Source: a virus | Lineage: Duplodnaviria; Heunggongvirae; Uroviricota; Caudoviricetes | Virus record (IMG/VR): IMGVR_UViG_3300025066_000017 | Direction: 5' to 3' (one strand) | DNA: 64,000 bases | Shown: positions 13,800 to 64,000 of the stretch, piece after piece | Layout of the letters: the number at the start of each line of letters is the position of its first letter | Numbering within the stretch: the first letter of the stretch is position 1 | The notes under the pieces: generated by a model | Database searches by the model: none | What the model was told of the DNA's origin: nothing | Seen by the model: the letters and a program-made list of their open reading frames with translations, nothing else | Made by a program: the position numbers and the translations under genes

Positions 13800-14189
13800 A
13801 TGGAATCTCGCAACAAACCACGCACATGGAAAGAAAGAAAAGCGGTCATCGACCGCTGGGGATGGGGACTCTTCTCCTTTTTGGTAACAAACGGTCTAAC
13901 CGACATCAAACAAATACGATATATTCTACAAGCCCAAAAGGCCCTGTTGCGTGGTAGAGTGCAAAAAGCATTGGAGCTTATAGATCTGTGCTTGGATCTT
14001 ATGGAGCGAACTGCAGAGATATACGAACCCGCGATAGAAAAGCGACTTCGAGAATTGATCTTCGGCACATCATTCAAGGACGAGACTGAAGAACCTACTA
14101 CACCAAATGCAAAAAAGAGTGCTACGGGAGAAAATAATAATGGGGACTACGGAAATTTTCCCACCGGAATCGGTCGATATAACATGTGA
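13800..14189 (+). CDS. Hypothetical protein
   Basis: 129-aa ORF. Overlaps the next ORF in another frame. Start is uncertain. Confidence 0.35.
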   Translation: MESRNKPRTWKERKAVIDRWGWGLFSFLVTNGLTDIKQIRYILQAQKALLRGRVQKALELIDLCLDLMERTAEIYEPAIEKRLRELIFGTSFKDETEEPTTPNAKKSATGENNNGDYGNFPTGIGRYNM

Positions 14190-48109: not shown

Positions 48110-48141
48110 TATGAAGTTTCCTCAAAACAATATAGATAAAG

Positions 48142-49476
48142 CTAAATGCTCTTTATCTGTAGACTGTTCTGATTCTGTCTTTGTTTCATCATATTTGTAA
48201 ACTTATAAAGATCTTGAGAATCCCAAGCAAAATCCATAGAAAGCATATTTTCAACCATATACTGAAGAGCATATGTCAATGTCAGTGCTAAAAATGGAGC
48301 AGAATTATTTAAGAACGCACTCTCACTGCCAACATCTTCTAACTTGTCGGGTATGTAGGGATTATCAATAGATTTAAAAGTAAAAATGCCTTGATCCAAC
48401 ATATCCTCTCTACCCAAATCGGGCACTACCTCTTTCAATAAAAAACTGTGAAGATATTCAATCATTTTCATATTGAGTCTGTCGCCCATTGACTCATGGG
48501 CAATTCGATAAATACCCCCATTTAAACAATATTTGTAAAATGTTGGCCCCACGACTGTCATCCAAAACGATCCTGCCAACCATGGCTCATAACCCTCATC
48601 ACTCCCTGGCTTTCTACCCAGTATCTCCACTCCCGCAAACCATGCTGCACTGTAGCTGCTTGGGGGTGTCATTGTGCTAAATGGCATATAAGCCCAAGTG
48701 TACTGAGCTAAATAAGCGGATCCTAAAGATACCTCTGCTGGTGTGATTTGAAGTGATTGTATTTTCTCGCTTGCCCAAATTGAGATCTGCTCTCCTGCTA
48801 TCCCAAGCTCTTTTGTATCTCGTTCTAGTGTCTCCAAAAATGCCAATGTCAGTATTTTTAAAGCACTCTTATGATTCTTTTTTTCAATATTTCCCATTTT
48901 TGGGATATGCAATAATAAGTTTTCTTGAATTATTTGGCGGAACCTTTCACTACCCAAATCCTCTGAGAAAGAAGAAGTAATCATACTCGATATCAAAGAA
49001 GGGTTTTGCACTAATAGATCTACGGGTTTCTCATCTTCTCCTTCATCTAATATTGATGAAGCAAATGGTGTACCTCTTCCAATACTCTCGGCACTTAGTC
49101 GGCTCGATTCGTACTCTGAAAACAACCGAAGAGCATCGTCTTCATCATATTGACTACCTAACGCCGACAACTCAGACCCATCCATCCCTGTATCACCCAG
49201 AGCCATTTGGCTACTGTCATCGTCTTCTTGTGGCCTTATCTGTAATGCTCCCTCTTCTTGTCCACCTGATTCATTATCCACCGGCACCCATTCGCCCGGA
49301 GCCACTTTCTTGAAATCCCCATCAGTCCAATGATGGACTTCTCCTATTGCAGCCTCGTCTTTTCCAAACGATCCTCCTACCGGAGAGAAGGGATTGCCTT
49401 GTCCTGTTGTAGAACTACTTCCACTTTCCTGTGATGTTTGAATGGTCGAATTTTGTTCCGGTTGCGGTGGTAGCAT
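48142..49476 (-). CDS. Candidate major capsid protein with acidic N-terminal (delta/scaffold-like) domain
   Basis: 444 aa. The first ~140 aa are acidic and low-complexity (QEDDDSSQ, YDEDDALRLF), followed by a ~300-aa globular domain. Order portal-(small protein)-this gene resembles the HK97-type portal-protease-capsid arrangement. Fold not verifiable by eye. Confidence 0.35.
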   Translation of the reverse strand: MLPPQPEQNSTIQTSQESGSSSTTGQGNPFSPVGGSFGKDEAAIGEVHHWTDGDFKKVAPGEWVPVDNESGGQEEGALQIRPQEDDDSSQMALGDTGMDGSELSALGSQYDEDDALRLFSEYESSRLSAESIGRGTPFASSILDEGEDEKPVDLLVQNPSLISSMITSSFSEDLGSERFRQIIQENLLLHIPKMGNIEKKNHKSALKILTLAFLETLERDTKELGIAGEQISIWASEKIQSLQITPAEVSLGSAYLAQYTWAYMPFSTMTPPSSYSAAWFAGVEILGRKPGSDEGYEPWLAGSFWMTVVGPTFYKYCLNGGIYRIAHESMGDRLNMKMIEYLHSFLLKEVVPDLGREDMLDQGIFTFKSIDNPYIPDKLEDVGSESAFLNNSAPFLALTLTYALQYMVENMLSMDFAWDSQDLYKFTNMMKQRQNQNSLQIKSI

Positions 49477-49558
49477 GGATGTCTCACTATATTTTTTTCA
49501 AAACAATGCCGAGAAACAAACCCATAATACCTACTGTTTTTTTCAATTAGCAAGCAAT

Positions 49559-50014
49559 TTAGATTTCTTTCACACAAAGAGATTTGGACGCACCAGGAAA
49601 AGCAAGGGGAAGCTCAAACTTCTGTGTCGCAAAATATCTTTCCCAAAGAAACTGAAAAACTTTCTCTTCAAACGAAGAAAGTGTCACTAACTTTGGAAGA
49701 ACCCCCTCGGGGCTTATTTCTATAATCGGCTTATTGTCATGCCTGTTGATTATCAACTTCGTTGTCTTTAATTTCTCGTCGCGAAATAATGCTTGGATCA
49801 ATAAGTTTGCAAATGTCCCCGGATGTATATCCGTATTCATCTTCCAATACGGTGCCTTCTCTCGAGGGTGAATTCGAAAGTAAACTTCTCCCTTGAAAAC
49901 AAAGTCAACACACCCCACCTCCTCCATAACCTCCTCAGTGCTTTCTAAGGATGACCAAATATCCGAAGGTTTACTAGGTAATATATAGAGGTCCCGTGAC
50001 TTTCGTTTAATCAT
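49559..50014 (-). CDS. Hypothetical head-module protein (position of prohead protease/scaffold)
   Basis: Track ORF 49559-50149. Trimmed here to the internal Met MIKRKSRD, which lies just downstream of the portal stop. Confidence 0.35.
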   Translation of the reverse strand: MIKRKSRDLYILPSKPSDIWSSLESTEEVMEEVGCVDFVFKGEVYFRIHPREKAPYWKMNTDIHPGTFANLLIQALFRDEKLKTTKLIINRHDNKPIIEISPEGVLPKLVTLSSFEEKVFQFLWERYFATQKFELPLAFPGASKSLCVKEI

Positions 50015-50021
50015 ATTTTTT

Positions 50022-53000
50022 TCACATTTGATTTGGATCGTTTGGATCTGGCACACCACCCAAAGGAGGAATTTTGTTTCTATCCGGATTAGTCTGCATA
50101 TAAAGCGGAACTGGCTTGGCTTGACCATACCCTGGAATTTCATTCTCACCCGCAGTCATATACGCCATTTGCTCCTCACTGGGATCGGGCAACATCTGCC
50201 CCTCTTCTTCCAATAAGGTTCTCGCCTGAATCCAAGCAGGGTTCAAAATCACATTGCCATCCGGACGAGGAGGAAGACCCTCAGATGCACGACCTTCATT
50301 AAGTGTCATAAACGCGCTCATCTTCATATTAAGAAGCTCCACGCGCTCTCTCTCAGACAACTCATCCAAACCAACAAAATCGAAATACAACCTCGAATCC
50401 AATGGGTCCACTATGTACTTCGTGATTTGTTTCGATATAAAACGAAGCAGAGGCCGAAGCCCTTTGTCTCGAGAGTGCTTTATTTTCCACTCGTGCTTAC
50501 TCTCAAACACAGGTGCCCCACCACTCCCACCACCACTTGTTAAATCAAAACCAACCTCAGATGGATCAATCAAGTAAGACGCGCAAACCTGACGAATCAA
50601 ATACTCCAGCCAGGACTGGAATTCCATCTCCCGATTCGTATGCTGCAGGTCGATGTATTCCATCTGTTCCGCCTGCAATATAGGGGTTCTGAACGAGTTT
50701 GAAATGACAATCCCGTTCGCGGCAAAAGCGTGTAGATCTGTGTTGATAGAAACATCAAACATGTCAACGAAATCAGTTGTTATCTCAATTTCTGAGATAG
50801 GAGAGAAGTGATACTCAAGAAGCCAGTTGGGTGGAGTAATATTTACTTTCTCAAGAAATCGAAGAATGCGGGGGAGACTACACCCATCATCGCCTCGAAT
50901 TATCGCATTAAGGTCCAACCTTTCTCGCAGGGTTAGTAATTCGTAATTAGCCTCTTTGTTCTTTTTTTGTATTTTTCTGGCGAAGAAATAAGTTGTTCGC
51001 GGAGAAACCCGGCTATGTTTATTCGCCTCGTTGGGGTTTACTAAATCATCGGGCTGCTTGTGGTCTTGAAGGAATCCAATGTTTTCATAAAAGTAGTCTT
51101 TGTCTTTTATGCGAAGAAGCGACTCTTTCTCTTCGTAATACCGAAGAGGGCCATCTATGACAATTTTTTGTTTTCCTTCCGACAGATTTGTTCGGATTCC
51201 AACTGAACTAAGAAGCCACTTCACTTCCTGACGCAAACTATCATTTGTGATCGTGATTGCGACAAAACGTCCATCTCCTATGTGACCATCGGCAGAGAAG
51301 AGTCCTCGGAGAAAAGCAAATTTCAATTCATTGGGAAGGGTATACACAAACGGAGGGACGTTTTTCCCTTCAGAGGAAAACTGGAATCCGACTTCTTTTA
51401 ACCATCTGGCAAAATTGACGTTATTTAAAACAATTTGAAGTCGCTCAGACGCAACACTCTTGAAACCATATCGTTCTTTGATCTTTTCCTGTTCTTCGGG
51501 AGTAATGTGGATATCTTTCAAACGTGCTGCAGGATCAAAGTCTTTGAGTATGGAAAGATGTCGTTCTCGTATCTCTCTTTCTTTTTCATGGTGATAGAAA
51601 CAAAGCATTCCTTTATCACTAAAGTACCCATCACCAACAGCCCATCCTAGGACTTCCATGAGATCGGGTGTGACTTGTTTTCCGTTGCAGTGTGGAATAT
51701 TGTCCGGGTTTTGTGGGGATTGTTTGTTTACAAGAACATAATCCCCTTCTTGAAGATCTTCGAGTCGTTTCCAAACAGGAAGACCATCTCCACCACCTAA
51801 AACTCTAAACTTATGATCTGGTGATGATTTGATCTCCAATCCACACGCCAGTTTTAGACGACAAAGTTGTTTTTGCTCCTTTGTGCGATAGACCAGACCA
51901 GAAGCCCATTCTTTTCCTGTCCAGATTGTCGCTTCTTTTTCTTCCGTGCCTTCAATATAGTTTTCAAGAGAAACCATCCCTTCTTCTCTTGTCCAGATTG
52001 TCGTATCTCCATGAAGACAGTTTTCCACACCTGCGATCATGGCATACCAAGCTCTTCTAAAGCTTTCCATTTGGGCCTCGGAAATCTCGTCGCCCTTAAT
52101 GTTGATCAATCCCTTCGGCGCGGAGTTGGAGAGAATCACTCCACCACAGGACCACTGGTGCGAGGAATCCTTGATTCTCACATCGTACATTGGGCGCATC
52201 TCTTCCATGTCTTCGATAGAAGAAACACGAATCCATTGGTAGGAGAGTTCCTCCAGGAAATCCCAACAATCCAGTTTCTGACAGATTTCAATTATTTCAT
52301 CTCTAGAACATAACTCTTGGCTAGAATCATCCGCAAAATTGGCAAGTTTTAGCAAAAGTGTTCTTTCCTCGAAGAATAAAGAACTTATATCGCAATGCTC
52401 CTCTAAATGCTTTGCCATTCTTTTTAATAGAGGCTTGGGTATATTTTTGTTTCTTATGTAGATCAGAGATTCGGGCAATTCTATGGGGGCTACTTCTAAG
52501 CTACGAGCAACAAAATCACCTTCTTGTATCTCCGCGATTGGCCTCATGAGTATCTCGCCGCTATCCGTCAGTGCGAGGAACTTATGGTCGGGTGATGTGT
52601 GTATCTCAAATCCATCATCAAGTGTTGTTCGAATGGTTTCTTTTTGCCCCGTAGAGACAACATCAAAAGGAACCCACCTCGATCCATTCCAAACATTTCC
52701 GATGGGTGAAAATTCGACATCTGGATTTACTGGGAGATCTTTGATGTAGAAAACACCTTCGTCAGTAAAAACTCTTGTGTCCTCTCCCACACAACCCTGC
52801 TTAAAGAAAGCTCGATTATAAATCTCGCCCCAAAGCATCCCCAGGACAGCGTTGAGGGCTTTCTCTAGTTCACTGGTTCCGTATCCATTGTTCCAGATAT
52901 TGGTTTCAGGGTTTCTCACACAGAATGCAAGATCATTGTATGAAAAGATATTTTCGATGCGGCCATGAAGGAGTTGTATAGAAAAGACCTGATCAGATGT

Positions 53001-53888
53001 CATGCCTCCAAACTCTTCTCCATATACTTTTTTCCATCTCTCCTGGAAGCCATCTGTAAATTGTTCACGCTGCAGTCTGTTGGGACCGCTTCCTCGGAAA
53101 CCTTCAAATGTGGCTGCGAGTCTAATTGTTGCGGCATCTACTGCTCTGAACTCATAGGGGCGACCATATGTGTCTGGAGTGATTTCGGCGCATGCCTGAT
53201 CTAGCGTAAGTGAGTCTGTGGTGAATTTTCTAAGAAAAGTCTCAAAGTCATCTCGTGGGTAGGGAGAGTATGGGTTGGGTCCAAATCCACACGCCATAAT
53301 CATTTGCTCGAGTCTTCGAATCTGTTCCTTTTCTTCATCAGATGGTTGATGTCCATCGTCCTTGAATCGGATTTGAAATCCGACCTGCTTGTTTTCTCTA
53401 TAGGGTTGGGCGAAGGCTGCGACTTGGTTGACTCGTGTCGTGATAATGGAAGCGATGATAGGCACCTGCTTCACAATGGCGCGTAGGGCGTCAAAGGACA
53501 CCGAGAAGCGACGTTCTCTATATCCGGCAGAGTACATGAGTGTCAGAGGGTCGAAGAATCGCGTGCGTGGCCCTCTCGCAGGAACCATTCCACTGGGAAG
53601 AGACTTGTATGCGTCCGGGCCTTGTCTATACATACTGGGAGACATTTGGGTTGATGGAGTGATAATACTGCTTTGTTGTTCTGCGGCATTGTGAGTAGCC
53701 AGAACATTCCCTGTTCCTACAGGGACTCCATTATTTTTTACCTCACTCCCTTTTGCTCCATGCACTCCACCATGATAATGATCTTGAAAAAAAGCATTCG
53801 GTGAAGAAGATACAGTTTGCTCCTGCATCATCAACATCGAATCTTCTTGACCCATAGCTCTGTTTTTCAACCAACTATTTATACTCAT
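50022..53888 (-). CDS. Portal-like protein precursor containing two inteins (extein about 624 aa)
   Basis: Two Cys-initiated Hint segments. Each has a ...SPDHKF(L/R)... block and ends in (G)I(V/L)(I/L)SN followed by Ser. No Walker A motif in the exteins, which argues against terminase. Position upstream of the head genes. Confidence 0.55.
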   Translation of the reverse strand: MSINSWLKNRAMGQEDSMLMMQEQTVSSSPNAFFQDHYHGGVHGAKGSEVKNNGVPVGTGNVLATHNAAEQQSSIITPSTQMSPSMYRQGPDAYKSLPSGMVPARGPRTRFFDPLTLMYSAGYRERRFSVSFDALRAIVKQVPIIASIITTRVNQVAAFAQPYRENKQVGFQIRFKDDGHQPSDEEKEQIRRLEQMIMACGFGPNPYSPYPRDDFETFLRKFTTDSLTLDQACAEITPDTYGRPYEFRAVDAATIRLAATFEGFRGSGPNRLQREQFTDGFQERWKKVYGEEFGGMTSDQVFSIQLLHGRIENIFSYNDLAFCVRNPETNIWNNGYGTSELEKALNAVLGMLWGEIYNRAFFKQGCVGEDTRVFTDEGVFYIKDLPVNPDVEFSPIGNVWNGSRWVPFDVVSTGQKETIRTTLDDGFEIHTSPDHKFLALTDSGEILMRPIAEIQEGDFVARSLEVAPIELPESLIYIRNKNIPKPLLKRMAKHLEEHCDISSLFFEERTLLLKLANFADDSSQELCSRDEIIEICQKLDCWDFLEELSYQWIRVSSIEDMEEMRPMYDVRIKDSSHQWSCGGVILSNSAPKGLINIKGDEISEAQMESFRRAWYAMIAGVENCLHGDTTIWTREEGMVSLENYIEGTEEKEATIWTGKEWASGLVYRTKEQKQLCRLKLACGLEIKSSPDHKFRVLGGGDGLPVWKRLEDLQEGDYVLVNKQSPQNPDNIPHCNGKQVTPDLMEVLGWAVGDGYFSDKGMLCFYHHEKEREIRERHLSILKDFDPAARLKDIHITPEEQEKIKERYGFKSVASERLQIVLNNVNFARWLKEVGFQFSSEGKNVPPFVYTLPNELKFAFLRGLFSADGHIGDGRFVAITITNDSLRQEVKWLLSSVGIRTNLSEGKQKIVIDGPLRYYEEKESLLRIKDKDYFYENIGFLQDHKQPDDLVNPNEANKHSRVSPRTTYFFARKIQKKNKEANYELLTLRERLDLNAIIRGDDGCSLPRILRFLEKVNITPPNWLLEYHFSPISEIEITTDFVDMFDVSINTDLHAFAANGIVISNSFRTPILQAEQMEYIDLQHTNREMEFQSWLEYLIRQVCASYLIDPSEVGFDLTSGGGSGGAPVFESKHEWKIKHSRDKGLRPLLRFISKQITKYIVDPLDSRLYFDFVGLDELSERERVELLNMKMSAFMTLNEGRASEGLPPRPDGNVILNPAWIQARTLLEEEGQMLPDPSEEQMAYMTAGENEIPGYGQAKPVPLYMQTNPDRNKIPPLGGVPDPNDPNQM
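50697..52019 (-). mobile_element. Intein 2 with LAGLIDADG homing endonuclease (about 441 aa: CLHGDTTIW ... ANGIVISN | S)
   Basis: aa 624-1064 of the same ORF. Two LAGLIDADG-type motifs (LGWAVGDGYF, LRGLFSADGHIGDG) lie between the Hint halves. Confidence 0.55.
52125..52793 (-). mobile_element. Intein 1 (mini-intein, about 223 aa: CVGEDTRVF ... MYDVRIKDSSHQWSCGGVILSN | S)
   Basis: Coordinates computed from aa 366-588 of ORF 50022-53888. N-terminal splicing block C-x-G-x-T, TSPDHKFLAL block and C-terminal block ending SN+S. Confidence 0.5.
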
Positions 53889-53938
53889 TATATAAAAACT
53901 CGCCTATAGGTTATGTAGAAGATAAACCATCTTTGAAA

Positions 53939-53957
53939 ATCTTTAGACTCTAAAGAT
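53939..53957. promoter_or_regulatory. Palindrome copy 13
   Basis: About 50 nt upstream of the portal ATG (53888). Confidence 0.7.
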
Positions 53958-54019
53958 TTTGTACAAACTTTATTGTTTTTTTAGCAGTGTTGTAAAGAAT
54001 AAGTTTTGGGAAGAGAGAA

Positions 54020-55528
54020 TTATTGGGCAGGATAAATGGGAGGATTTGTTTCGGATGGAAGCGGTTGACTGTCATCGCTTGGGGTGGGAGAGGCGTTGGC
54101 AACACCCGTTGCTTCTCTTGAAAAATCAAACTCTCTTTCAACCGCGGCTTCTTGCGGCGAAAGCCTGCGTTCCCCTCCGTCTCCCTGTCCCATGCCCTTG
54201 TCCATTTTGAATACGAGAGGAGGAAATTCGTTCTCTCCGTCTTTTTCTTTCTCTTCTTGTAACTGCGACTTGTGTACGATTGTGAGGGGTTGCATGGACA
54301 AATCCTTGTCTTCTTCGGGTTCTTCTAAAAGTTCCTCTGCCGTGTTTGATTTTAGCAGATCCGAATCAGGAAATCCTTTTGCTTGCCAAAGCCTTTGGTT
54401 AATGACGTCCCAATTTATTATTTGAAAAAAATCCTCCACATATGCTTCTTTGTCGGGTCCATACTCAGCGAGGTAGGCGTGCTCCCATAGATCTATTCCT
54501 ATGAGAGGGATATCACCAGGAATACTTGGGTTGTCTGGACCCACATCATACATAATTTGTGGATTGCCATGATTTCTCAAGGTATACATCGCCAACCTAT
54601 CCGTGGCCCCACGGTATACCAACCACAACCATCCCGATCCCACTAAACGATTCGCTTCTCGTTTAGCACTAGCAATCATTTCCTCCATGCTACCAAATAA
54701 ATCTTTTATCGCATTTCTTAAAAGATCGGAGATAGATGCTCTAGATGTGTTTTTCTCCTCTTCTTCTTCAGTTCTCTCTTGAGGTTGTATAGAAGCCCAA
54801 AGGAATGAATGATTAATATCTCCACCCAAATAGTGAATGAGTTTATCTACCAATCCCGGTGGCATCTGAGAAAGAGATATCATAATAGACAGAGGAGAAA
54901 GCCCCTCCCATGCAGTTCCTTTGAGAGTTTCCTCAAACATCTCTACATATTTTCTATGAAGTACTTCATAGTGATGTCGTAGACTGCTCTCCTTAAACAC
55001 AGGACCAAATGCATCATAGGCATAAGGAAAGGCAGGCATAGAGATTTCAGAATTATCCGATGACTTCCGAAGCAATTGGAAAGATTTCCCCATCTCTTCT
55101 TCTTCCATCATTTGCTCTTGCATCATCTCTTCTTCAGGATCAACACCAATACCGTGCGATGCCGCCACATCGTCTTCTAGTTGAGCGAGCCTTTGCTGCT
55201 TTGCTCCCTCAATAATAGCCTCGTGGGCTTCGTATTCCTCGTCTTGTCTTTGCCGAAAAGTATAGGCAACTTCTGCTATGTCATCTTGCGGCCACCCATC
55301 CATCTTCATCTGACGCAAAATCTCTACATGCTCTGGCCAAAGGCGATGGAAAATTCCACCCAAAGCTTCAAGCTTCTCTGTTAGAGGATGTATTCGATAT
55401 CTTGGAGCATCCCAAAGGTGCGCCTCAATAGGATGAATCCCCCATCCTGGTGGTGGTTCTCCTCCGAGAGCATTCACTAAACCTTCTTGCTGCTCTTCGT
55501 TTCCACCATTGGGTTTCATTGGACACAT
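54020..55528 (-). CDS. Fe/Mn superoxide dismutase domain protein with N- and C-terminal extensions
   Basis: Complete SOD signature set: PAFPYAYDAFGP...HHYEVLHRKYV (N-terminal helix with His ligand), LGGDINHSFLW (GG.xNHS.FW, His ligand), GSGWLWLV, and IDLWEHAYL...INWDVIN (D-x-W-E-H ligands). Flanked by an ~150-aa N-terminal and ~80-aa acidic C-terminal extension. Confidence 0.8.
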   Translation of the reverse strand: MCPMKPNGGNEEQQEGLVNALGGEPPPGWGIHPIEAHLWDAPRYRIHPLTEKLEALGGIFHRLWPEHVEILRQMKMDGWPQDDIAEVAYTFRQRQDEEYEAHEAIIEGAKQQRLAQLEDDVAASHGIGVDPEEEMMQEQMMEEEEMGKSFQLLRKSSDNSEISMPAFPYAYDAFGPVFKESSLRHHYEVLHRKYVEMFEETLKGTAWEGLSPLSIMISLSQMPPGLVDKLIHYLGGDINHSFLWASIQPQERTEEEEEKNTSRASISDLLRNAIKDLFGSMEEMIASAKREANRLVGSGWLWLVYRGATDRLAMYTLRNHGNPQIMYDVGPDNPSIPGDIPLIGIDLWEHAYLAEYGPDKEAYVEDFFQIINWDVINQRLWQAKGFPDSDLLKSNTAEELLEEPEEDKDLSMQPLTIVHKSQLQEEKEKDGENEFPPLVFKMDKGMGQGDGGERRLSPQEAAVEREFDFSREATGVANASPTPSDDSQPLPSETNPPIYPAQ

Positions 55529-55571
55529 CCTCTAACAAAAAATAGAAATTTATTTCTCTTTCGAGAAGTAA

Positions 55572-56120
55572 TTACTTGCTATCAACAGACTCCGGAACAG
55601 GAACCTCTGGCAATACAGGCACTGCCACCAGATCTAAAGCCTCCACAATGACCGAATCCGAAGCGCTACCATCTTCGGAAACCACCCGAATTTCTTGACT
55701 TATAGGAATTGTTTCGACCATTGGGTTATCAAACCCAGCGCCGAAGTCTTCTTCTGTGATGGGGCTCTGATTCGCAGTTCCATTCTCAACGACCGAAACC
55801 GCTCCATCATCTCCAACCTCAATCCTCCCCACCGGCTGTGTCTTCCCAAATGAATAAACAAGATTATCTTCGCCTTGCTTCTCAGGAAGAGCAAAGTCTC
55901 CCAAACGAGCCCTTTGTCTGCGTATTTCTCTGTTTTGTCTTCGCATCTGACGGGCTATCCGAGAATCCACTGGAGGACTATCTGGAGCCGCGTTCGGATC
56001 TATATTGGGAGCGTTCTCTTTTTTCTTCTGTTCCTCTTCAAAACTCTCCAGACGTGGCGGTCTAATCGCCATCGATCTTGGAACACTCATCGTCATGCTG
56101 TCACGCTCAGATCGTCGCAT
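55572..56120 (-). CDS. Hypothetical virion-module protein
   Basis: 182-aa ORF co-transcribed with the SOD gene (43-nt gap, no palindrome between them). Palindrome at 56152-56170 about 30 nt upstream. Confidence 0.4.
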   Translation of the reverse strand: MRRSERDSMTMSVPRSMAIRPPRLESFEEEQKKKENAPNIDPNAAPDSPPVDSRIARQMRRQNREIRRQRARLGDFALPEKQGEDNLVYSFGKTQPVGRIEVGDDGAVSVVENGTANQSPITEEDFGAGFDNPMVETIPISQEIRVVSEDGSASDSVIVEALDLVAVPVLPEVPVPESVDSK

Positions 56121-56151
56121 TTCTATAATCTCCTTCGATAGTTCTAATGAA

Positions 56152-56170
56152 ATCTTTAGAGTCTAAAGAT
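56152..56170. promoter_or_regulatory. Palindrome copy 14
   Basis: About 30 nt upstream of the start of gene 55572-56120. Confidence 0.7.
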
Positions 56171-56241
56171 TTTTCCTTTGCTTCTGTGTAAGTGTAAACG
56201 GTATTGCAAAAAAAGAAACATATTTCTTTGCAATAAAATAT

Positions 56242-57753
56242 CTATACCACACTCAAAGAAATACCATAGTAGTGTCGTTTCAACTGGTGCTCCAATAATT
56301 CAAGTCTTTCTTTATAGTCTTTAATCGTCGCAGAATACACACCATAACTAGCCGAAGATGTAAATGTAACTGACTGCGAGACACCACCCTTTGAAAAAGA
56401 TTGACCCGCAATACCACCACGAAAAGCTTGACCTAAAACAGGCAGCGCCTTTACAGCCGCTCTCATTCCAATGCAATCCAAGATGGGTGTCGGTGTTTCC
56501 CTGCTTTCTATTCCAGCCCAGTATCGAAGTCTCCAGAAAGAAGGAATCTCAACAGATCCTCGCAACGACCCTATATGAATGAGACCAAGATAAGAGAACG
56601 CGGTGCTGTGATTAAAGGGCATAATCTGCAAAAAATTGTGTGCATCAAAGTGAACCCAAGACAAGTTTATATCAATAACCCGTGTCCCCCCCACAGCGCC
56701 TATAAGATAGTCGAACTTGATAGGGTGACAATAGGGCAAGCGAAGGCGCAACCAGTGCGCCCCAGACGCGGGGAAATAAGATATAGGCTTGGACTTCAAG
56801 TCATAGTCGAAGTTCTGGGGTATTGCTGGAAGAGGTTGGGAGCCACTTGTGGTACTGGATTGTAATGTTGTCAGATCATCATCCGTAACAACCAAAGAAG
56901 GTTCAATGGGTGTCTTGAGAAGTTCCTTCTCCATCCAGTCACACTCTGCATCAATCCACTCTCGCAAAGTCTTTCTCTGGAACTTCTTTTTGTCAATAAT
57001 GAGATTCTCTGTGGCGTCTACTGCAGGCACAAGCCTTGGATTCACTCGAACAGTAATAAAGCTCTGCTGGTCTTGTGCTAATAGAACGTACTCCTTATTA
57101 AGTCCTCCCGGTAAGCTTGTATCAATTGGGATAGTTGTCCCACCCCAAGATAATGAAGGCATGGGAGGAGTTTGACCATCATAAACGAGATTTAAACGAT
57201 GCATCCCCATTGGATGATTTTTCGAAACCTCACTAACCACCACACCTGCAATTGCCGAAGGCTGCGTTCGACACATTCTATCATCATTGCTCTGTCTAGT
57301 CGCTCCCTCCAACCACCTCCTCTCAAAGGCTTCCGTTGTCATTAAACAAACGCGAAAAGTTTCGGAACCCTTCTCTAAGACAGACGTATCGTGCGTTACC
57401 TTTATAAAATAACTCCCCCTCCGCAGCATCGGAAACGGCTTTGTCGCAGAATAGACAATCTCCCGAATGTCCCACGTCAGTTGTTGTCCACCATTAGGCA
57501 CCTGACCCGCAAAAGTAAATGTTTTTCGGGACTGCACAATCTCCTCTAAATCTCCTCGACGCTTCTTCCAAAGAGATACCGTTATAGCTTCCCCAACATT
57601 TGTTGCGTCATTTGGAGTAGGTATAATATTGACTGTCAGTGTCTCGCGACCATCTTCATTTCGACAGAACTCATGCACTCCATCAAAAGGCAAGGTCGAA
57701 CCTGTGTCTATCGGGGGTGGTTCTATATATACTTGCAGATCTGTAAGGGCCAT
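56242..57753 (-). CDS. Hypothetical virion structural protein
   Basis: 503-aa ORF. Palindrome at 57777-57795 upstream. Confidence 0.45.
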   Translation of the reverse strand: MALTDLQVYIEPPPIDTGSTLPFDGVHEFCRNEDGRETLTVNIIPTPNDATNVGEAITVSLWKKRRGDLEEIVQSRKTFTFAGQVPNGGQQLTWDIREIVYSATKPFPMLRRGSYFIKVTHDTSVLEKGSETFRVCLMTTEAFERRWLEGATRQSNDDRMCRTQPSAIAGVVVSEVSKNHPMGMHRLNLVYDGQTPPMPSLSWGGTTIPIDTSLPGGLNKEYVLLAQDQQSFITVRVNPRLVPAVDATENLIIDKKKFQRKTLREWIDAECDWMEKELLKTPIEPSLVVTDDDLTTLQSSTTSGSQPLPAIPQNFDYDLKSKPISYFPASGAHWLRLRLPYCHPIKFDYLIGAVGGTRVIDINLSWVHFDAHNFLQIMPFNHSTAFSYLGLIHIGSLRGSVEIPSFWRLRYWAGIESRETPTPILDCIGMRAAVKALPVLGQAFRGGIAGQSFSKGGVSQSVTFTSSASYGVYSATIKDYKERLELLEHQLKRHYYGISLSVV

Positions 57754-57776: not shown

Positions 57777-57795
57777 ATCTTTAGACTCTAAAGAT
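57777..57795. promoter_or_regulatory. Palindrome copy 15
   Basis: About 24 nt upstream of the ATG of gene 56242-57753, downstream of the giant ORF stop (57848). Confidence 0.7.
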
Positions 57796-57847: not shown

Positions 57848-60800
57848 TTATTTATGTATCGGAACAAAACAAAGAGGACCAGTAGACTTTTCTATTGAAA
57901 CATTTTCTTGCTCAAAAGAAACACCAATGGATTTTAGAAATCCATCCATTCCACCATCTCCCCAACCGTTCGACTCTTCTCCGGAGTTTGAAATAAAATC
58001 TACCACTTCTTGTTCTGGTCCAGGATCTGATATCCCATGGTCATCAGGACTCCCCGGCTGATAATACTCGTCTCCTCGAGTAAACTGCCAAACACCCACA
58101 CCTTCTTCCGGCGTCTCTTGCTGCATAGGCGATGGTTGCGGAGGCTCTGGCTCTGCAGGGGCTGGTCCTTCTATAAAGACAGGCTGGCCTCCCATTTGTC
58201 GATAATGACCAATATCACCCTGCTCACCAACCTCTTGGCCTCCAGGCATAGGATCTCCCATAGCCTTCTCCATCGGTGTTATCACGAGAGGACCTTTAGC
58301 GCCCAATACAGAATCTGGATCTTTATCATCATTATCTATGGAAACACTTTTGTTAGAAAGATCATCTTCTTCAATGTTTTCTTCATTGCCAGATACATTC
58401 ACACCATACTCTGCCAAATCATCCACCATGTCCCCGCCTAGCCAGTTTGCAAAATCGGGCATTTCTGCTTGAGAGTCGGAAACTTCTGCTTGAGAGTCGG
58501 AAATTTCTTTGATTCTCTGAGTTTCTTGTTTGCGTGACTCCTCGAGACTGGCCGCTTGGTCTGGGGGCAACATATTGTGTTCAATTTGAGCATCCTGAAT
58601 CAGCTTGCCCAATTTTTGCCGTTTTTCTTCTGGATCGTCGATCTTTCCAAGAATTGTGTGCCATGCAAATGGCATAGTATCAGGCTCTCGAAGAAGATCT
58701 TCTGCCTTCCAACTTCCTTTTCCTAGATGTCTTAGTACTTTCTTTACACCATGCCTTGCCTTGGTTTGTGATAGTTCTTTTTGTGTTTCCTCTTCCTCCT
58801 TTTTCTCCCGTTCGACTCTTTCTCCATCTGCTATTGCAGTTTCTGTGTACTCTTCATCCCCAGTTCGATCAGTCAAGCCTAAGACTTTCTCAACTATGCC
58901 TTGTTTCTTTTTTTGTTTCTTTTCTTTTTCGACTCTTTCTCCATCTGCTATTGCAGTTTCTGTGTACTCTTCATCCCCAGTTCGATCAGTCAAGCCTAAG
59001 ACTCTCTCAACTATGCCTTGTTTCTTTTTTTGTTTCTTTTTTTGTTTCTTTTCTTTTTCGACTCTTTCTCCATCTGCTATTGCAGTTTCTGTGTACTCTT
59101 CATCCCCAGTTCGATCAGTCAAGCCTAAGGCTCTCTCACCCCAGCTCTGCTTCTTCTTCTTTTGAGTCGGAGCAACTTCTTCTTCTGCGGAAACATCTTC
59201 GTTTCTCATTCCTGTATCCTCTGCTTGTTCTTCGGGCAACTCTGGAAGATCTGGCAACTCTTCACCAGTAAATAATTCCGGGAAACGTTGTTGTAGTTCG
59301 CTCTGATAATGAGAAGCTGCCTTGTATTGTGGATCTATATCACGTCCAAACTGTTGTGCCTGTCGCACAAAATCTTGCGCAATTCCTTTTGGATGCCAAT
59401 TACCCATATCGTAATTATCATCCAAATATTCTTGCAGACGATGTCCCGAAGAACCTTCCTTATGCAAACCCTTTAGACGAGACTCTAGATTTCGAACCAT
59501 TGTTCCGTATGCAGATCTGTATGCGTCTTTTCCTAATGTCCTTTGTAATCTTTTACCATGATCCCTAAAAATCGATTTATTCTTATCTAAAAGATCAAAC
59601 GCCTCACTATGAGTTCCTTGAGCAGCCTCGAAGATTTCTGGATTCTCTCCCATTCCTGCCAATGCATTTTGTATTGGATGAGAATGGTCGTTTACAACGC
59701 GGAAAGATGGTGGCGTTTTTTCTTTGGGAGCCTCTCCCGCGTTCTCATCAAAAAGATTAGAATCCGGAGTCTGGTTAGAGTCGGGAGTCTGATTCTCTTG
59801 ATTCAGTTTTTCTCCTGTTCTTTGGCTTCGATAAGATCTGTTCCCAGTTATTAACTCAGATGCATCCGATATAAAGGCGGTTGCATCATCAAATAAACCA
59901 CCTTCTCCCGAAGCCTTTGCTTCTTTCATCCTTTTACGAGACTCTCTTCTTGAAGATTCTTTCAAGAGCTTTCGTATATTTGATGGGTAGTCACCGTGTA
60001 GAGCATCTTCACCAAATGCACTTATCAATGGACCAAAAAGCGACCTACCCAAACGCACAACTTCTTCCTCTTGATCTGGACCTATATCTTGTCCCAATAG
60101 ATGGGACAGGGCTTCTGCGTGCTCTTGGTTGTAAGCTTGATCAAAAGCTTTCATTGTAGAACCATGAAAAAGTCTATCAGACAATCTACGTAGCCATGGT
60201 GAGTCTTCTGATTGCTCTCTAAACTCGTCCATATACCCTTTTAGCTTTTGGCTATGTCGGAGGAACTTTCTGGCTCTATTAAGCGTTGCACTATTGTTTT
60301 TCTTTTTCTTTGCTTGTTTTGCCTGGGGTTGAATTTGAAGGGCACCCTTCGTTCCCGGAGCATTGCTTTCTGTGCTTTCTATGGGTTGGCTCGGAGAAGC
60401 ATCATCTTCTTGATAGTCTTCTTCTTGATAATCATCTTCTTGTTGATCATCTTCTTGATAATCATCTTCTTGTTGATCATCTTCTTGTTGATCATCTTCT
60501 TGATAATCTTCTTCTTGATAATCATCTTCTTGTTGATCATCTTCTTGATAATCATCTTCTTGTTGATCATCTTCTTGTTGATCATCTTCTTGATAATCTT
60601 CTTCTTGATAATCTTCTTCTTGATAATCTTCTGTATCTATATCCGAAGACTCTGCTCTAGGCTCACTCTTCGCAGAGTCAACTTGAACACCTTCATCAGT
60701 ATCCTCGCTCTGGGTTTCCTGCGTGTCTTTATCAAACTCCGCAGTCCCCTCTCTCTCCTCTCTCGAAGATAAGAACTCGTCATCTCTCTCTCGTCGAGAA

Positions 60801-63800
60801 CGACTTTGTTTACGATATTCACTCAAACGAGAGCGATTTTGCTCTAGATGGGCATCTAGAGCAAAATCGTCATCGCCCCCTACTCCAGGACCTTCTCCTA
60901 GTTGTTTGAATATTTCTTCTAGTTGAGAACGGTGCTCTTCATCACCAACGCCAGAGAGATGATCAAAGATTCGATCTTCTGTTTGTCTAAAGGCCGGATC
61001 ATGCTCGGCTCGTAAATTTTCTAATCGTGAGAGGTGATGCTTGAACTTTTCTCCTCTGCTCATGTATCGAGTTTCTTCAGGCTCGCTACCTAAGTCTGCA
61101 CTTCCCCCTAAACTCTCTCCAGTTAAGACAGAGAATATCGGGCTCTGCATATAGTTTTGTAGAATTTGACCGTGCTTTTCCAATTCCTCTCTAAGAGAAG
61201 CCGGTGCTGTGTTCGGAAGAAGCTGCTGCAATAGGTGTGTCGTATGTTCCTTTTCGCGAATATTCTTCACATGCTCGATAGCACTATCTACCAAGTGTTG
61301 TTCATTTGCCGCCGACAATTCTTGCATAACAGGATGATCGTCCGAGAGCCCTGGTGTGGACGCTTCATGCGAGAGCCCTGGTGTGGGCGCTTCATGTTTT
61401 TTAATATCCTCTATAGTTTGGGACAGATCCTTGAAAGCAAACTCTTGTTTTCCTGTGTCTTTGTTGTCCTCTTTTTGATCTAACTGGTCCTTAGCAGATG
61501 ATTCTTCACCTACTTCATTTTGTTGAGCATTATGTCCACGTTTATATGTTTCGGGATTTCTTCTTAATGTGCTTTTGAATTTACGAAGCTTTGTTCGAAG
61601 TTGCCCCATATCCGAATGATATTTCTCTAGTTCTTCGGGGCTAGGAGCTTCTTCTGATTCAGACCATTCGTTCGCACGATCCTCTAAATCAGAAAGACCA
61701 TCTCTTATATCTCTTGGAAAATGATCTGTTGCAATAGGACTTCCATCCGAATGACGTAACCCTTCCTTTAGAAACTTAAATTTCTCCAGGTTCATATCCC
61801 TTTGAATAGACCTATCTTCATCATTACCTATATGTCGTTCTGGTGAATCTATCTCAACATCTTCATATGACTTTGTTTCTGCTCCCTTTCTTCTAGGAAC
61901 TCTTGAAGCTTTTCCTCTAAGTTTAGATTCATTTCCATTATTGTCGCTTGCTTCATTGCCTATCAGTTTTTCGTCTTCAAAAACATCTTCTTCAATAGCA
62001 CCTTCGGAGGTATCTTCATCAAATCCTTCAGTATCCTCTTCTCCCGAATCTAGACCCAAGGCATCTTTTATAGCAAATTTGGTGTCTTGCCATTGCTTCC
62101 ATCTTGACTCCTTAGCCTCTGGGGAGTCTGTTGGCATGGATTGGACTTCTTCAAGTTGCTCCACTAGATCTTTATGCTCTGGGGCGTCTCCCAACGCCTC
62201 TGAGATGCTATTCGCCAGAGAAGTTATTGACTCGTGAGACTCGTCAGAGAGAACATCTTCAGTCTCTGGCTTCTCTGCGGGGAGAAGATTTTCCTTTATA
62301 TCCTCATCTGAAAGTTTCTCTGCAGATGCACCTGGATTGTAGAATCCTCTAAACTGTCTTGTTTCATTCTCGTTCCAATCTTTAGAGTCTAAAGATTCTT
62401 CACCATAAGAAGACGGTTGCTCTGCCGCTTGTAATATTTCTTTTATATCCTCCAAGTTTCTTGCTTCCATCGGATAAGAAGGTTCTTCTTCTTTCATCGA
62501 TGGAGACGATGCTTCCGTTTCTGGAGCAGATATTCTTTCTGTGGGGCTTGGAGTGTCTGTTGACGTCTCTTCGTCATCGCCCCAAGGATCCCCATCAAAA
62601 GGACTTTCGGATCCTGGACGACTAGAGACCTGTGTGTCTTCTTCGGGACGACTAGAGACCTGTGTGTCTTCTTCGGGACGTCTAGAGACCTGTGTGTCTT
62701 CTTCGGGACGTCTAGAGACCTGTGTATCTTCTTCTGGACGACTAGAGACCTGTGTGTCTTCTTCTGGACGACTAGAGACCTGTGTGTCTTCCTCTCTTGC
62801 TTTTATTTGAGGAGTTGGCGCGGTTCCTAGATTTGTTGGATTTGAAGATCCTGATAAACTATTCTGTGTTCTTATCATCAAGGCATTGTAATCTTTTTTT
62901 ATTTGATTAATTTCTTCTTGCGAAGCTCCTCTCTTCTCTGCTTCTTCTGTTTCTCTACGTAATGCTTGATGAAGGTCGCCCAAGATCTGAGTTTGATGAC
63001 TCACGTTATCCGAAGGAGCTTCATCTCGGTATAACCTATTATTCGATGGTTGCTCTCTTCTATCCTGTAATCTCTGTTTATTCCCATGCGCTTCTTTTAT
63101 TCTGCGCTTTAGCTCATTGCGCTGCTCAGTTGAAAAATCATCGGGATGCTCTAAATCTGTTTCTTCAAGAAGTCCATCTCTGAGATGTGACATCTCTTCA
63201 TGACTCATTTGTCCAGACTCGAGAAGAGATGCAATTTCTTTTGTTTCTGGAGCAGAAGCAAGAGCAGGATCCTTAGAATCTTCTCCTAATGGACTCTCCA
63301 TTACACCTGTATCCGCAAACGCAGAATTGTCCATCATATCCGTATCGGCAAACGCTCTAGGAGAAACGTCTTGTTCTTTTTGATCGACTAGGTTCCCTGG
63401 CATTCCATCATCAAAAAGCTTCGCATCATTCTCACTGAATCCTGCATTTTCTAAAACATCTGGATTTAGCTTCTTAAACTGATCCCATATTTTTTTATAT
63501 TCACCCATCTGTACCCGTTCAAATTGAGACAGACCTCCCTTCTCTTCCACAATCCTCTTGAATTCAGAAGCCACCCTTTCTACATTATCAAGGATTTCAC
63601 CTTGCTCCTCATCGAGACCCCCTTCACGAAGCCTCTCAAAATGAGAACTATCCATATCAAGAAAAGATTTCTCTTCTCCATCCAGCTTATCTACTGGATG
63701 GAAAAAATCATGCATTTGCGCTTCTTGTAAGTCTCTTTCGAGTTTAGCACCCGACGATCTTTTTGGTAGCGACCCATGATCAACAAAAGGCTGAAATTGT

Positions 63801-63988
63801 TGCGGCGTTGAGCTAGAGTCGAATGAAGGTTGTGCTTGATTTCCTCTTCCCACCGGAGCCAATTGACCAATCTGAGCATGCTCCCCGGTATTTGATAAAT
63901 CTTGTATACCAGAAACATCCGACATACGATCACTCAATCCAGGAATTTTACTTTGCGCGACGTTCCAAATTTGTTTCGCTTCATCCAA
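57848..63988 (-). CDS. Giant hyper-acidic repeat-containing protein (>2046 aa; N-terminus beyond window edge)
   Basis: Continuous ORF to the window end. Very high Glu/Asp/Gln content. Three internal tandem-repeat arrays encode EEDTQVSSRP x6, (E/D)DYQEED / DDQQEDD runs, and (LGLTDRTGDEEYTETAIADGERVEKEKKQKKKQ) x3. Confidence 0.55.
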   Translation of the reverse strand: MDEAKQIWNVAQSKIPGLSDRMSDVSGIQDLSNTGEHAQIGQLAPVGRGNQAQPSFDSSSTPQQFQPFVDHGSLPKRSSGAKLERDLQEAQMHDFFHPVDKLDGEEKSFLDMDSSHFERLREGGLDEEQGEILDNVERVASEFKRIVEEKGGLSQFERVQMGEYKKIWDQFKKLNPDVLENAGFSENDAKLFDDGMPGNLVDQKEQDVSPRAFADTDMMDNSAFADTGVMESPLGEDSKDPALASAPETKEIASLLESGQMSHEEMSHLRDGLLEETDLEHPDDFSTEQRNELKRRIKEAHGNKQRLQDRREQPSNNRLYRDEAPSDNVSHQTQILGDLHQALRRETEEAEKRGASQEEINQIKKDYNALMIRTQNSLSGSSNPTNLGTAPTPQIKAREEDTQVSSRPEEDTQVSSRPEEDTQVSRRPEEDTQVSRRPEEDTQVSSRPEEDTQVSSRPGSESPFDGDPWGDDEETSTDTPSPTERISAPETEASSPSMKEEEPSYPMEARNLEDIKEILQAAEQPSSYGEESLDSKDWNENETRQFRGFYNPGASAEKLSDEDIKENLLPAEKPETEDVLSDESHESITSLANSISEALGDAPEHKDLVEQLEEVQSMPTDSPEAKESRWKQWQDTKFAIKDALGLDSGEEDTEGFDEDTSEGAIEEDVFEDEKLIGNEASDNNGNESKLRGKASRVPRRKGAETKSYEDVEIDSPERHIGNDEDRSIQRDMNLEKFKFLKEGLRHSDGSPIATDHFPRDIRDGLSDLEDRANEWSESEEAPSPEELEKYHSDMGQLRTKLRKFKSTLRRNPETYKRGHNAQQNEVGEESSAKDQLDQKEDNKDTGKQEFAFKDLSQTIEDIKKHEAPTPGLSHEASTPGLSDDHPVMQELSAANEQHLVDSAIEHVKNIREKEHTTHLLQQLLPNTAPASLREELEKHGQILQNYMQSPIFSVLTGESLGGSADLGSEPEETRYMSRGEKFKHHLSRLENLRAEHDPAFRQTEDRIFDHLSGVGDEEHRSQLEEIFKQLGEGPGVGGDDDFALDAHLEQNRSRLSEYRKQSRSRRERDDEFLSSREEREGTAEFDKDTQETQSEDTDEGVQVDSAKSEPRAESSDIDTEDYQEEDYQEEDYQEDDQQEDDQQEDDYQEDDQQEDDYQEEDYQEDDQQEDDQQEDDYQEDDQQEDDYQEEDYQEDDASPSQPIESTESNAPGTKGALQIQPQAKQAKKKKNNSATLNRARKFLRHSQKLKGYMDEFREQSEDSPWLRRLSDRLFHGSTMKAFDQAYNQEHAEALSHLLGQDIGPDQEEEVVRLGRSLFGPLISAFGEDALHGDYPSNIRKLLKESSRRESRKRMKEAKASGEGGLFDDATAFISDASELITGNRSYRSQRTGEKLNQENQTPDSNQTPDSNLFDENAGEAPKEKTPPSFRVVNDHSHPIQNALAGMGENPEIFEAAQGTHSEAFDLLDKNKSIFRDHGKRLQRTLGKDAYRSAYGTMVRNLESRLKGLHKEGSSGHRLQEYLDDNYDMGNWHPKGIAQDFVRQAQQFGRDIDPQYKAASHYQSELQQRFPELFTGEELPDLPELPEEQAEDTGMRNEDVSAEEEVAPTQKKKKQSWGERALGLTDRTGDEEYTETAIADGERVEKEKKQKKKQKKKQGIVERVLGLTDRTGDEEYTETAIADGERVEKEKKQKKKQGIVEKVLGLTDRTGDEEYTETAIADGERVEREKKEEEETQKELSQTKARHGVKKVLRHLGKGSWKAEDLLREPDTMPFAWHTILGKIDDPEEKRQKLGKLIQDAQIEHNMLPPDQAASLEESRKQETQRIKEISDSQAEVSDSQAEMPDFANWLGGDMVDDLAEYGVNVSGNEENIEEDDLSNKSVSIDNDDKDPDSVLGAKGPLVITPMEKAMGDPMPGGQEVGEQGDIGHYRQMGGQPVFIEGPAPAEPEPPQPSPMQQETPEEGVGVWQFTRGDEYYQPGSPDDHGISDPGPEQEVVDFISNSGEESNGWGDGGMDGFLKSIGVSFEQENVSIEKSTGPLCFVPIHK
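58786..59165. repeat. 3 x ~117-129-nt tandem repeats within giant ORF
   Basis: Unit ttcgactctttctccatctgctattgcagtttctgtgtactcttcatccccagttcgatcagtcaagcctaag..., starting at about 58811, 58928 and 59057. Confidence 0.8.
60401..60650. repeat. Array of ~30-nt repeats (tcttcttgataatcatcttcttgttgatca), coding acidic DYQEED/DQQEDD runs
   Basis: Direct reading of 60400-60650. Confidence 0.75.
62378..62396. promoter_or_regulatory. Palindrome copy 16, located inside the giant acidic ORF
   Basis: The only copy embedded in a long reading frame (translates in frame as ...SLDSKDW...). The other 15 are intergenic or overlap a stop codon. Confidence 0.6.
62616..62795. repeat. 6 x 30-nt perfect/near-perfect tandem repeat (ggacg[a/t]ctagagacctgtgt[g/a]tcttcttc[g/t]), coding EEDTQVS(S/R)RP
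   Basis: Copies begin at 62616, 62646, 62676, 62706, 62736 and 62766. Confidence 0.85.
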
Positions 63989-64000
63989 CTGCTCTTGCTC

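Follow-up and report, generated by a model that had tools for sequence, protein, structure and literature searches.

The gene and its extent

The window analysed here, a stretch of 64,000 nucleotides (nt) from a tailed virus of the class Caudoviricetes (IMG/VR record IMGVR_UViG_3300025066_000017), ends within a gene for a very large, acidic and internally repetitive protein, which we call the giant. The gene lies on the minus strand, and from its stop codon (57848-57850) the frame is open for 2,050 codons, through base 64000; the TTG at 63988 is merely the first start-like codon inside the window edge and not the start of the gene. A first-pass annotation, made from the letters of the window, had reported an uninterrupted open reading frame (ORF) running to the edge and had looked to sequence beyond 64000 for the true start. 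Both points hold. The complete gene is present in L003:10-9906 (3,298 amino acids, aa; an 84-kb contig found in public assemblies by way of the neighbouring 503-aa protein), which is identical to the window except in the 129-nt repeat array described below, and a version from a second lineage is present in L006:10001-20308 (3,435 aa; a 129-kb contig found by scanning metagenomes with the N-terminus of the giant). Both begin at the same ATG, about 3.7 kb past the window edge, and this start is well defined: an in-frame TGA stands 21 nt before it, and the genes ahead of it run in the other direction. Thus, the ORF of the first-pass annotation stands, but its strand, repeat periods and full length have had to be corrected. 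At about 10 kb, the gene occupies some 8% of a contig of roughly 129 kb. Among all available contigs, lineage A comprises the window, L003 and L005, and lineage B comprises L006, L001 and L002.

Might so long a frame be an artefact of repeat assembly, or low-complexity DNA without a function? Several contigs do break within repeat arrays, and copy numbers differ between otherwise identical assemblies. Against this, the frame is unbroken across 9.9-10.3 kb in both lineages and in assemblies made independently of different samples, with none of the stops or frameshifts that the first-pass annotation had named as grounds for giving the gene up; all indels between assemblies are multiples of 3; and the ratio of nonsynonymous to synonymous divergence between the lineages (dN/dS, Nei-Gojobori) is 0.32 overall. 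Because the frame is intact in independent assemblies, its length changes are in frame and dN/dS is 0.32, the giant gene is real, kept intact under purifying selection and restricted to its lineage; the artefact explanation is largely refuted and scarcely credible.

Within the gene, a hypervariable patch is flanked by sequences that are nearly the same in the two lineages (Table 1). The 250-codon bin over the patch has a dS of 0.70 and a dN/dS of 0.25, and the patch keeps the hydrophobic pattern of the helical module described below. It is probably a recombinant segment, derived from a more distant, unsampled version of the giant gene.

Table 1. Positions in the window of the giant gene, its internal features and the neighbouring genes and motifs discussed in the text
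Feature	Position	Strand	Details
Giant gene, C-terminal 2,050 codons and stop	57848..64000	-	ORF open to the edge
21-nt small duplication	58463-58508	-	Tandem Repeats Finder (TRF)
129-nt (43-aa) array	58811..59184	-	2.7-3 copies; includes ...LGLTDRTGDEEYTETAIADGERVEKEKKQKKKQ...
18-nt small duplication	59757-59791	-	TRF
Motif GALQIQPQ (giant aa 2549)	60323..60346	-	sibling of GPLQIRPG and GALQIRPQ
Acidic array	60401..60632	-	15.5 x 15 nt, 45-nt super-period; encodes 77-aa (E/D)(E/D)D(Y/Q)Q
Minor tandem duplication	61343..61396	-	2 x 27 nt; TRF
Intragenic palindrome, exact	62378..62396		sole copy deep inside a gene; read SLDSKD in the only stop-free frame
30-nt array	62616..62791	-	5.9 copies, 96% match; encodes EEDTQVS(S/R)RP x6
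Hypervariable patch	63380..63880	-	16-49% nucleotide divergence per 100 nt between lineages; flanks 0-6%
Intergenic palindrome	57777..57795		between the giant's stop and the adaptor gene; 23 nt upstream of the adaptor ATG
Head-tail adaptor (neck), 503 aa	56242..57753	-	directly downstream of the giant
444-aa ORF beside the portal gene	48142..49476	-	acidic disordered N-terminus of about 160 aa, hydrophobic C-terminal domain

Repeat arrays and the growth of the gene

Tandem arrays were called on the window with TRF (Table 1). The first-pass annotation had described three of them, of 6 x 30 nt, about 8 x 30 nt and 3 x about 120 nt; all three are real, but the second is made up of 15.5 copies of a 15-nt unit, and the period of the third is 129 nt. 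The second, which we call the acidic array, is about 60% Asp/Glu and contains the polyanionic run EEDYQEEDYQEDDQQEDD that the annotation had quoted.

Arrays of this perfection had also been proposed there as hotspots of length variation, and a comparison of copy numbers among assemblies does reveal in-frame variation, affecting at least five arrays and seen even between otherwise identical assemblies. The 10-aa unit of the 30-nt array is present in 6 copies in the window and 9 in lineage B; the acidic array encodes 77 aa in the window, 57 aa in lineage B or at least 42 aa across assemblies; and the 43-aa unit of the 129-nt array occurs three times in the window, twice in lineage B and once in L003. 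Two arrays past the window edge behave likewise, a 19-aa unit being found in 2, 3 or 5 copies, and a 30-aa unit in 2 or 3 copies, across assemblies. Part of this variation may reflect assembly collapse. Three contigs break inside the giant gene, two of them in arrays (L001/L002 starts in the 30-nt array and L005 ends in the acidic array, while L004 starts 640 nt before the giant's stop codon), so copy numbers from short reads, including those of the window, are uncertain. Since perfect arrays coexist in the gene with old, diverged modules, it has probably grown by serial internal duplication, in arrays that are still changing copy number.

A polyanionic, largely disordered protein

The full-length protein, in its L003 version, has a mass of about 369 kDa, a net charge of -298, an isoelectric point (pI) of 4.6 and one Cys. 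Asp and Glu together make up 19.5% of its residues, Gln 8%, Ser 9.5% and Pro 7.5%, and hydrophobic residues account for about 20% along its entire length; the N-terminal third is rich in Pro, Gln, Ser and Thr, and the C-terminal two thirds are acidic. The earlier description of the giant as hyper-acidic and internally repetitive is amply borne out by this charge and pI, and by the arrays. In a charge-hydropathy plot, 98% of the giant's 60-aa windows fall on the disordered side, compared with 0-40% for the large structural proteins of the window. Two single-sequence AlphaFold2 (AF2) runs spanning the 2,050 residues encoded in the window gave helices and coil only, with no confident domain and with a mean predicted local distance difference test score (pLDDT) of 44.6 and 44.7, values that are weak evidence of disorder, low confidence being expected of runs made without an alignment, though they do agree with the composition.

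Some internal order is nevertheless detectable. Three diverged helical modules of about 85 aa (L003 aa 572-660, 737-829 and 1109-1195) match each other with E values of 1e-5 to 2e-4, and the first two of them end in GNPFAPV. Further copies of the module were sought, but two hand-picked candidates went undetected unless they were built into the model. The giant protein may be pictured as short helical islands joined by long, disordered, repeat-built linkers, and is predicted to be almost wholly disordered.

The search for relatives

Neither the 2,050-aa product nor a 346-aa non-repetitive piece found a homologue among 5.8 billion protein clusters in word-indexed searches, although these searches missed the query's own protein too, and the collection possibly lacks it. 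No homologue of the C-terminal 815 aa was found by exhaustive phmmer comparison with 1.84 billion representatives, nor any relative of the giant among GenBank phages in DNA and protein searches. No part of the 3,298-aa protein matches Pfam, PHROGs, NCBIfam or PDB sequences, and phmmer detected no similarity between the giant and 928 ORFs lying upstream of the adaptor gene in 58 related loci (see below); for the N-terminal 1,250 aa, the searches were those of the domain libraries, the PDB and the related loci. The literature yielded nothing relevant on comparable giant, acidic, disordered phage proteins. On these searches, the giant protein is an orphan, with no detectable relatives or domains.

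Two known kinds of very long phage protein were considered and set aside. For an N4-like virion RNA polymerase, PHROG and Pfam searches taken as far as E<=1 gave no match, and the composition is that of a disordered protein throughout. A tape measure gene would be expected between the tail tube/chaperone genes and the baseplate genes, but the giant lies 12-30 kb upstream of the sheath, tube and baseplate genes; a separate gene in that region encodes a 782-aa protein whose match is PHROG 1015 ('tail protein with lysin activity').

A palindrome within the giant gene

The genome is punctuated by a 19-bp palindrome, ATCTTTAGA[C/G]TCTAAAGAT, which matches 17 sites in the window at up to 3 mismatches, against 0.05 expected by chance; 10 of the 17 are exact. 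The sites span positions 5584-62396 and stand upstream of the ribosome-binding site (RBS) of most genes on both strands. Intergenic copies have a run of A on the 5' side and a run of T on the 3' side, followed by a GGAG-type RBS and a start codon 14-31 nt downstream. The first-pass annotation had picked out a single intragenic copy, in the giant gene, and correctly so: it is exact, and it is the only copy deep within a gene, the others lying between genes or overlapping just a stop codon.

Does this copy mark an internal promoter or start for a shorter C-terminal product, or the point of fusion of two ancestral genes, as the annotation had suggested? An exact 19-mer cannot arise by chance, and this one is kept in lineage B (L006:15867). 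Its position may also matter: without it, there would be a gap of 10.5 kb between neighbouring palindromes (L006 9846 to 20363), compared with 1.6-8.1 kb for the other gaps in the window. Moreover, the core of the palindrome occurs six times in a distant relative (45% adaptor identity; L007:3141-18881), where two of the copies are intragenic. On the other side, the copy in the giant gene lacks the A-run and T-run flanks, no RBS or start codon follows it, and an in-frame ATG is not reached for about 80 codons, which speaks against a C-terminal product. It lies in predicted coil (AF2) rather than where domains meet, neither half of the giant is a separate gene in any relative, and it is within a 400-nt block of zero divergence between the lineages, not at a mosaic breakpoint, which speaks against a junction of ancestral genes. 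Both proposals are therefore very unlikely. A role as a recombination breakpoint was also rejected, as divergence falls more than 100 nt away, the copy being inside the zero-divergence block.

What else might the palindrome be? The hairpins that it could form in RNA are weak (-7 to -10 kcal/mol; about -8 kcal/mol for the intragenic copy). The core was absent from the other distant relatives among the loci up to L017, a distribution that marks the palindrome as a conserved signal of one subclade. Recurrence every few kilobases may be required, with the spacing under selection. Candidate roles are those of a binding site for some factor, a weak terminator working in both directions or a hairpin for RNA processing.

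The operon of the giant gene

The giant is the first gene of a neck/portal/tail operon, and its nearest upstream neighbours are transcribed the other way. In placing it at the head of the structural module, the first-pass annotation was right as far as this operon is concerned, with the adaptor gene downstream and divergent genes upstream. A gap of 94 nt, including one copy of the palindrome, separates the giant gene from the adaptor gene. The identification of the adaptor comes from a profile of 18 homologues that matches the Phi812 adaptor chain 8q01_b (E=3.8e-6), and is backed by synteny with tail-terminator-like, sheath and Phi812-type tube genes. The source phage is a contractile-tailed virus, with sheath, baseplate J, wedge and Phi812-type tube genes all present in the window; it is a myovirus, marine and uncultured, whose neck and tail genes are Phi812-like. 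A scan for sigma-70 promoters and terminators upstream of the giant's start codon found none.

After the adaptor come genes for a 182-aa ORF, a 502-aa protein with superoxide dismutase (SOD) domains, an intein-bearing portal, a 122-aa ORF and the 444-aa ORF, followed by neck and tail genes. When positions 47294-57753 were compared with L007, L015 and L017, it was found that in these relatives a homologue of a 271-aa gene directly follows the adaptor gene, so that here the block from the 182-aa ORF to the 444-aa ORF, with the SOD-fusion and portal genes, is inserted between the two genes. In more than 27 relatives, an SU10-type major capsid protein is encoded upstream of the adaptor, and no homologue of it was found in the 64-kb window.

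The divergent block on the other side of the giant, seen in L006:1-9900, encodes a PAS-HisKA-HATPase histidine kinase together with receiver-domain, SET-domain, pentapeptide-repeat and GmrSD_N-domain proteins. The pentapeptide-repeat fold is known to mimic DNA. The giant thus stands at the junction with a block of regulatory or anti-defence appearance (pentapeptide-repeat, GmrSD_N, SET and two-component system), and this, with the 77-aa array that is about 60% Asp/Glu and the disorder predicted throughout, could suit an intracellular effector that is never packaged, acting as a DNA or RNA mimic, a decoy or a condensate scaffold (for a virus factory, for example). However, the giant gene is co-oriented and contiguous with the neck, portal and tail genes, only 94 nt from the adaptor, and its product shows no similarity to known DNA mimics, which are small, rigid and expressed early. 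We consider a purely intracellular role rather unlikely.

What takes the place of the giant in related phages?

Homologues of the adaptor, at 25-53% identity, were found in 58 other loci, none of which contains an ORF like the giant in size or composition. Among the seven relatives with at least 45% adaptor identity, all have an InPase (PF18823) gene at most 10 kb upstream of the adaptor gene, directly adjacent to it in five. Four of the seven InPase genes specify multidomain products 1,189-1,811 aa long, at least two of which have recorded phosphatase or kinase domains; in L011, a kinase gene and a ddrB-ParB gene also stand by themselves in the same upstream stretch. The 'polyvalent proteins', a class predicted to be packaged in capsids and injected (Iyer et al., 2017; PMC5512222), have InPase and ddrB-ParB among their signature domains. 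Since InPase genes fill this position in relatives and the giant has no InPase, the giant is an occupant peculiar to its lineage, at a position where relatives have effectors predicted to be delivered by the virion.

Several details of these loci deserve mention in their own right. InPase-containing proteins are encoded beside the adaptor at L008:6419-9988, L011:1-10010, L025:765-6197, L014:9005-9973 and L020:1749-2867. In some relatives, the InPase protein carries dual-specificity/tyrosine phosphatase or Ser/Thr kinase domains, and a ddrB-ParB gene is nearby; Zeta-toxin-like and PP2C genes are found just downstream of the adaptor gene. Taken together, the genes around the adaptor in relatives look like a variable effector cassette beside a neck gene. 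A degenerate InPase domain was suspected by eye in the C-terminus of the giant itself (GPLVITP...FIEGP), and was rejected when a clade-specific hidden Markov model gave the giant a best score of -4.0 bits, compared with up to 2.4 for shuffled sequences. Nor was an InPase found in the other 42 proteins of the window, or in the 10 kb upstream of the giant in L006.

The adaptor gene also gives rise to a different thought. The C-terminus of the adaptor family resembles tail-fibre PHROG 772, and the giant, encoded alongside, has variable tandem repeats, a single Cys and stretches rich in Pro, Gln, Ser and Thr, a combination typical of exposed, linker-like proteins. The giant could conceivably be an external appendage at the neck or capsid surface, a long, charged and disordered 'brush' or fibre that prevents virions from adhering to particles and to one another, or that makes first contact with the host surface, its length being tuned by copy number. 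Yet it has none of the Ig-like, beta-helix, collagen or coiled-coil trimerisation domains that are usual in phage fibres and decoration proteins, there is nothing comparable at this position among the 58 loci, and its positional counterparts are enzymes predicted to be internal. An external location is, in our judgement, unlikely.

Motifs in common with a head-module protein

Two rare short motifs connect the giant with the 444-aa ORF encoded beside the portal gene (Table 1). GNPF(A/S)PV occurs in the giant (L003) at aa 651 and 820, and as GNPFSPV at residue 27 of the 444-aa ORF; G(A/P)LQI(R/Q)P occurs in the giant (L003) at aa 460 (GPLQIRPG) and 2549, and at residue 76 of the 444-aa ORF (GALQIRPQ). 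Thus, both motifs are within the first 85 residues of the smaller protein. The relatives' upstream ORFs, about 188,000 residues in all, contain no instance of NPF[AS]P or of LQI[RQ]P. Moreover, of the ten best short matches to the giant, five fall in the 444-aa ORF, which makes up 2.7% of the residues searched. There was no paralogy between the 503-aa and 444-aa neighbours.

The motifs could be capsid-targeting or prohead-protease sites. Internal head proteins processed by a protease are described for SPN3US and T4 (PMC7411985, PMC9958956). With such a precedent, and with candidate protease sites in common with the acidic N-terminus of a head-module protein, might the giant be an assembly factor, a scaffold-like or core-like organiser of the prohead or neck that is later removed by degradation or expulsion, as acidic scaffolding proteins and the T4 prohead core are? 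The character of the giant is acidic, helical and disordered. Its gene is not, however, beside that of a capsid protein, there being none in the window, and relatives build similar necks and tails without such a protein. Known scaffolds are about ten times smaller than the giant. An assembly role seems to us quite improbable.

A cargo of the virion?

The idea that the giant is an internal, ejected protein, which the first-pass annotation had raised beside DNA mimicry, is supported indirectly, by the InPase genes upstream of the adaptor in relatives and by the motifs in common with the 444-aa ORF. On this basis, we tentatively favour, with more doubt than conviction, a reading in which the giant is a late-expressed polyanionic cargo, packaged in the head and ejected, that stands in for the polyvalent effectors of relatives. 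The protein would be made late and loaded into the prohead, perhaps by way of the motifs GNPF(A/S)PV and G(A/P)LQI(R/Q)P common to it and the 444-aa head-module protein. It would be carried in the head beside the DNA, and at infection the unfolded chain could pass by way of the portal and the tail channel into the host cell, whole or in fragments. It would in this way be the positional counterpart of relatives' InPase-containing polyvalent effectors. What it might do in the cell is a matter for speculation: its acidic arrays might occupy host DNA- or RNA-binding proteins, as a nucleic-acid-like polyanion.

A number of points weigh against the cargo proposal. Packaging in the virion is an indirect prediction, from position and motifs. 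The argument from position is one of guilt by association, as the giant has no domain of any polyvalent protein, and the synteny argument is weakened by rearrangement of the structural module relative to that of relatives, and by the lack of any homologue of their family of major capsid proteins in the 64-kb window. The 444-aa ORF, on which the argument from motifs turns, has no match in PDB, PHROGs or Pfam, or in IMG/VR beyond the same phage, and the conservation of the motifs is that between just two closely related lineages, a small evolutionary distance. The structure predictions add little, for the reason given above. A net charge of -298 is electrostatically unfavourable beside packaged DNA, and the classical internal proteins of T4 are basic.

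DNA mimicry by the giant, which the first-pass annotation had thought possible, is not supported by comparison with known mimic families: it was drawn from charge alone and fails on every testable feature of those families. It is nevertheless a reasonable guess at how a delivered polyanion might act. A bolder version of the cargo proposal can be framed, in which a polyanionic, disordered thread of more than 3,000 residues is packaged and injected as a nucleic-acid-like decoy or shield, a protein 'pseudo-genome' that is loaded by motifs, has its length tuned by hyper-mutable arrays and replaces the enzymatic polyvalent effectors; this we regard as a long shot.

Other features of the window

The portal gene (50022-53888, minus strand; 1,288 aa) contains intein-splicing and LAGLIDADG domains. 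Lineage B, represented here by L002, lacks exactly 669 bp (223 codons) of it, at 52126-52794, overlapping the intein-splicing match, which suggests that a mini-intein is polymorphic for presence or absence, besides a second, endonuclease-bearing insertion. The 502-aa protein (54020-55528, minus strand) has the N- and C-terminal domains of Fe/Mn superoxide dismutase, with acidic disordered extensions, and may be another virion-carried enzyme.

Further accessory genes (at 673-1644, 3690-5275, 10905-11552 and 14107-15291) encode SPFH/Band 7, two adjacent T5orf172/MUG113, DUF1643 and MazG-domain proteins. Rfam and transfer RNA scans of the window found nothing, and a search of GTDB genomes with the adaptor profile, for the host, gave no match.

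Wider significance

About 8% of the genome is devoted to one protein without a fold, domain or relatives, and yet this protein is kept intact under purifying selection. If it is indeed packaged and injected, then phages can deliver very large unfolded polyanions and not enzymes alone; as cargo, it would represent a new class of agent for anti-defence or host takeover, and a natural example of the targeting of disordered cargo to a capsid. If it is instead external or intracellular, it would still be among the largest disordered proteins of bacterial viruses, and a clear case of gene growth by repeat expansion. Since genes of this kind break short-read assemblies, they are probably under-counted in viromes.

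Comparison with known systems

DNA mimics such as T7 Ocr and ArdA, and proteins with acidic tails of D/E repeats, have a high density of Asp and Glu, as does the giant in its 5-residue repeat (about 60%). Known mimics are folded proteins of about 100-170 aa that are made early and display carboxylates on a rigid surface. The giant, by contrast, has more than 3,000 aa (about 20 times as many), is predicted to be disordered, is encoded in a late operon and matches none of the families; the AF2 models, which are weak evidence here, contain only helices and coil, where a mimic would have a small rigid fold with carboxylates spaced as in B-DNA. Scaffolding proteins, which are encoded beside the major capsid gene and have about 100-400 aa, differ from it in both respects, its neighbour being the adaptor gene and its length more than 3,000 aa.

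The virion RNA polymerase of phage N4, gp50, is a protein of about 3,500 aa that is injected, and DNA hairpins with 3-nt loops serve it as promoters. The giant is of similar size, and its genome is likewise dotted with hairpin-forming palindromes upstream of genes; here, however, the palindromes are genome-wide and not limited to early genes, the giant has no polymerase match, and a folded polymerase core is incompatible with its composition.

Proteins ejected from the head interior (the internal proteins of T4, the 'E protein' bolus of SPN3US and phiKZ, and the Dar proteins of P1) are encoded, like the giant, by late or structural-module genes, but they have no homology to it, and whereas the internal proteins of T4 are small and basic, the giant is huge and polyanionic. 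The loading by motifs that we propose would parallel the T4 capsid-targeting sequence and prohead-protease processing (PMC7411985, PMC5694885, PMC9958956; PMC5512222).

The polyvalent proteins remain as the other comparison (Iyer, Burroughs, Anand, de Souza and Aravind, 2017; PMC5512222). They have at least two effector or enzymatic domains, none of which was detected in the giant, and those of the relatives differ from it in sequence, to which there is no similarity, in size (the giant is about 2-3 times larger) and in the fraction of windows on the disordered side (0.98 for the giant, 0.45-0.75 for theirs). In other respects the likeness is closer. The giant belongs to a portal/terminase phage and is encoded in a virion-gene context, as polyvalent proteins are; like them, it is a very large single polypeptide of a tailed phage, encoded among virion genes and upstream of the adaptor, as in all seven close relatives; and it has, like the polyvalent proteins of those relatives, charged low-complexity linkers.

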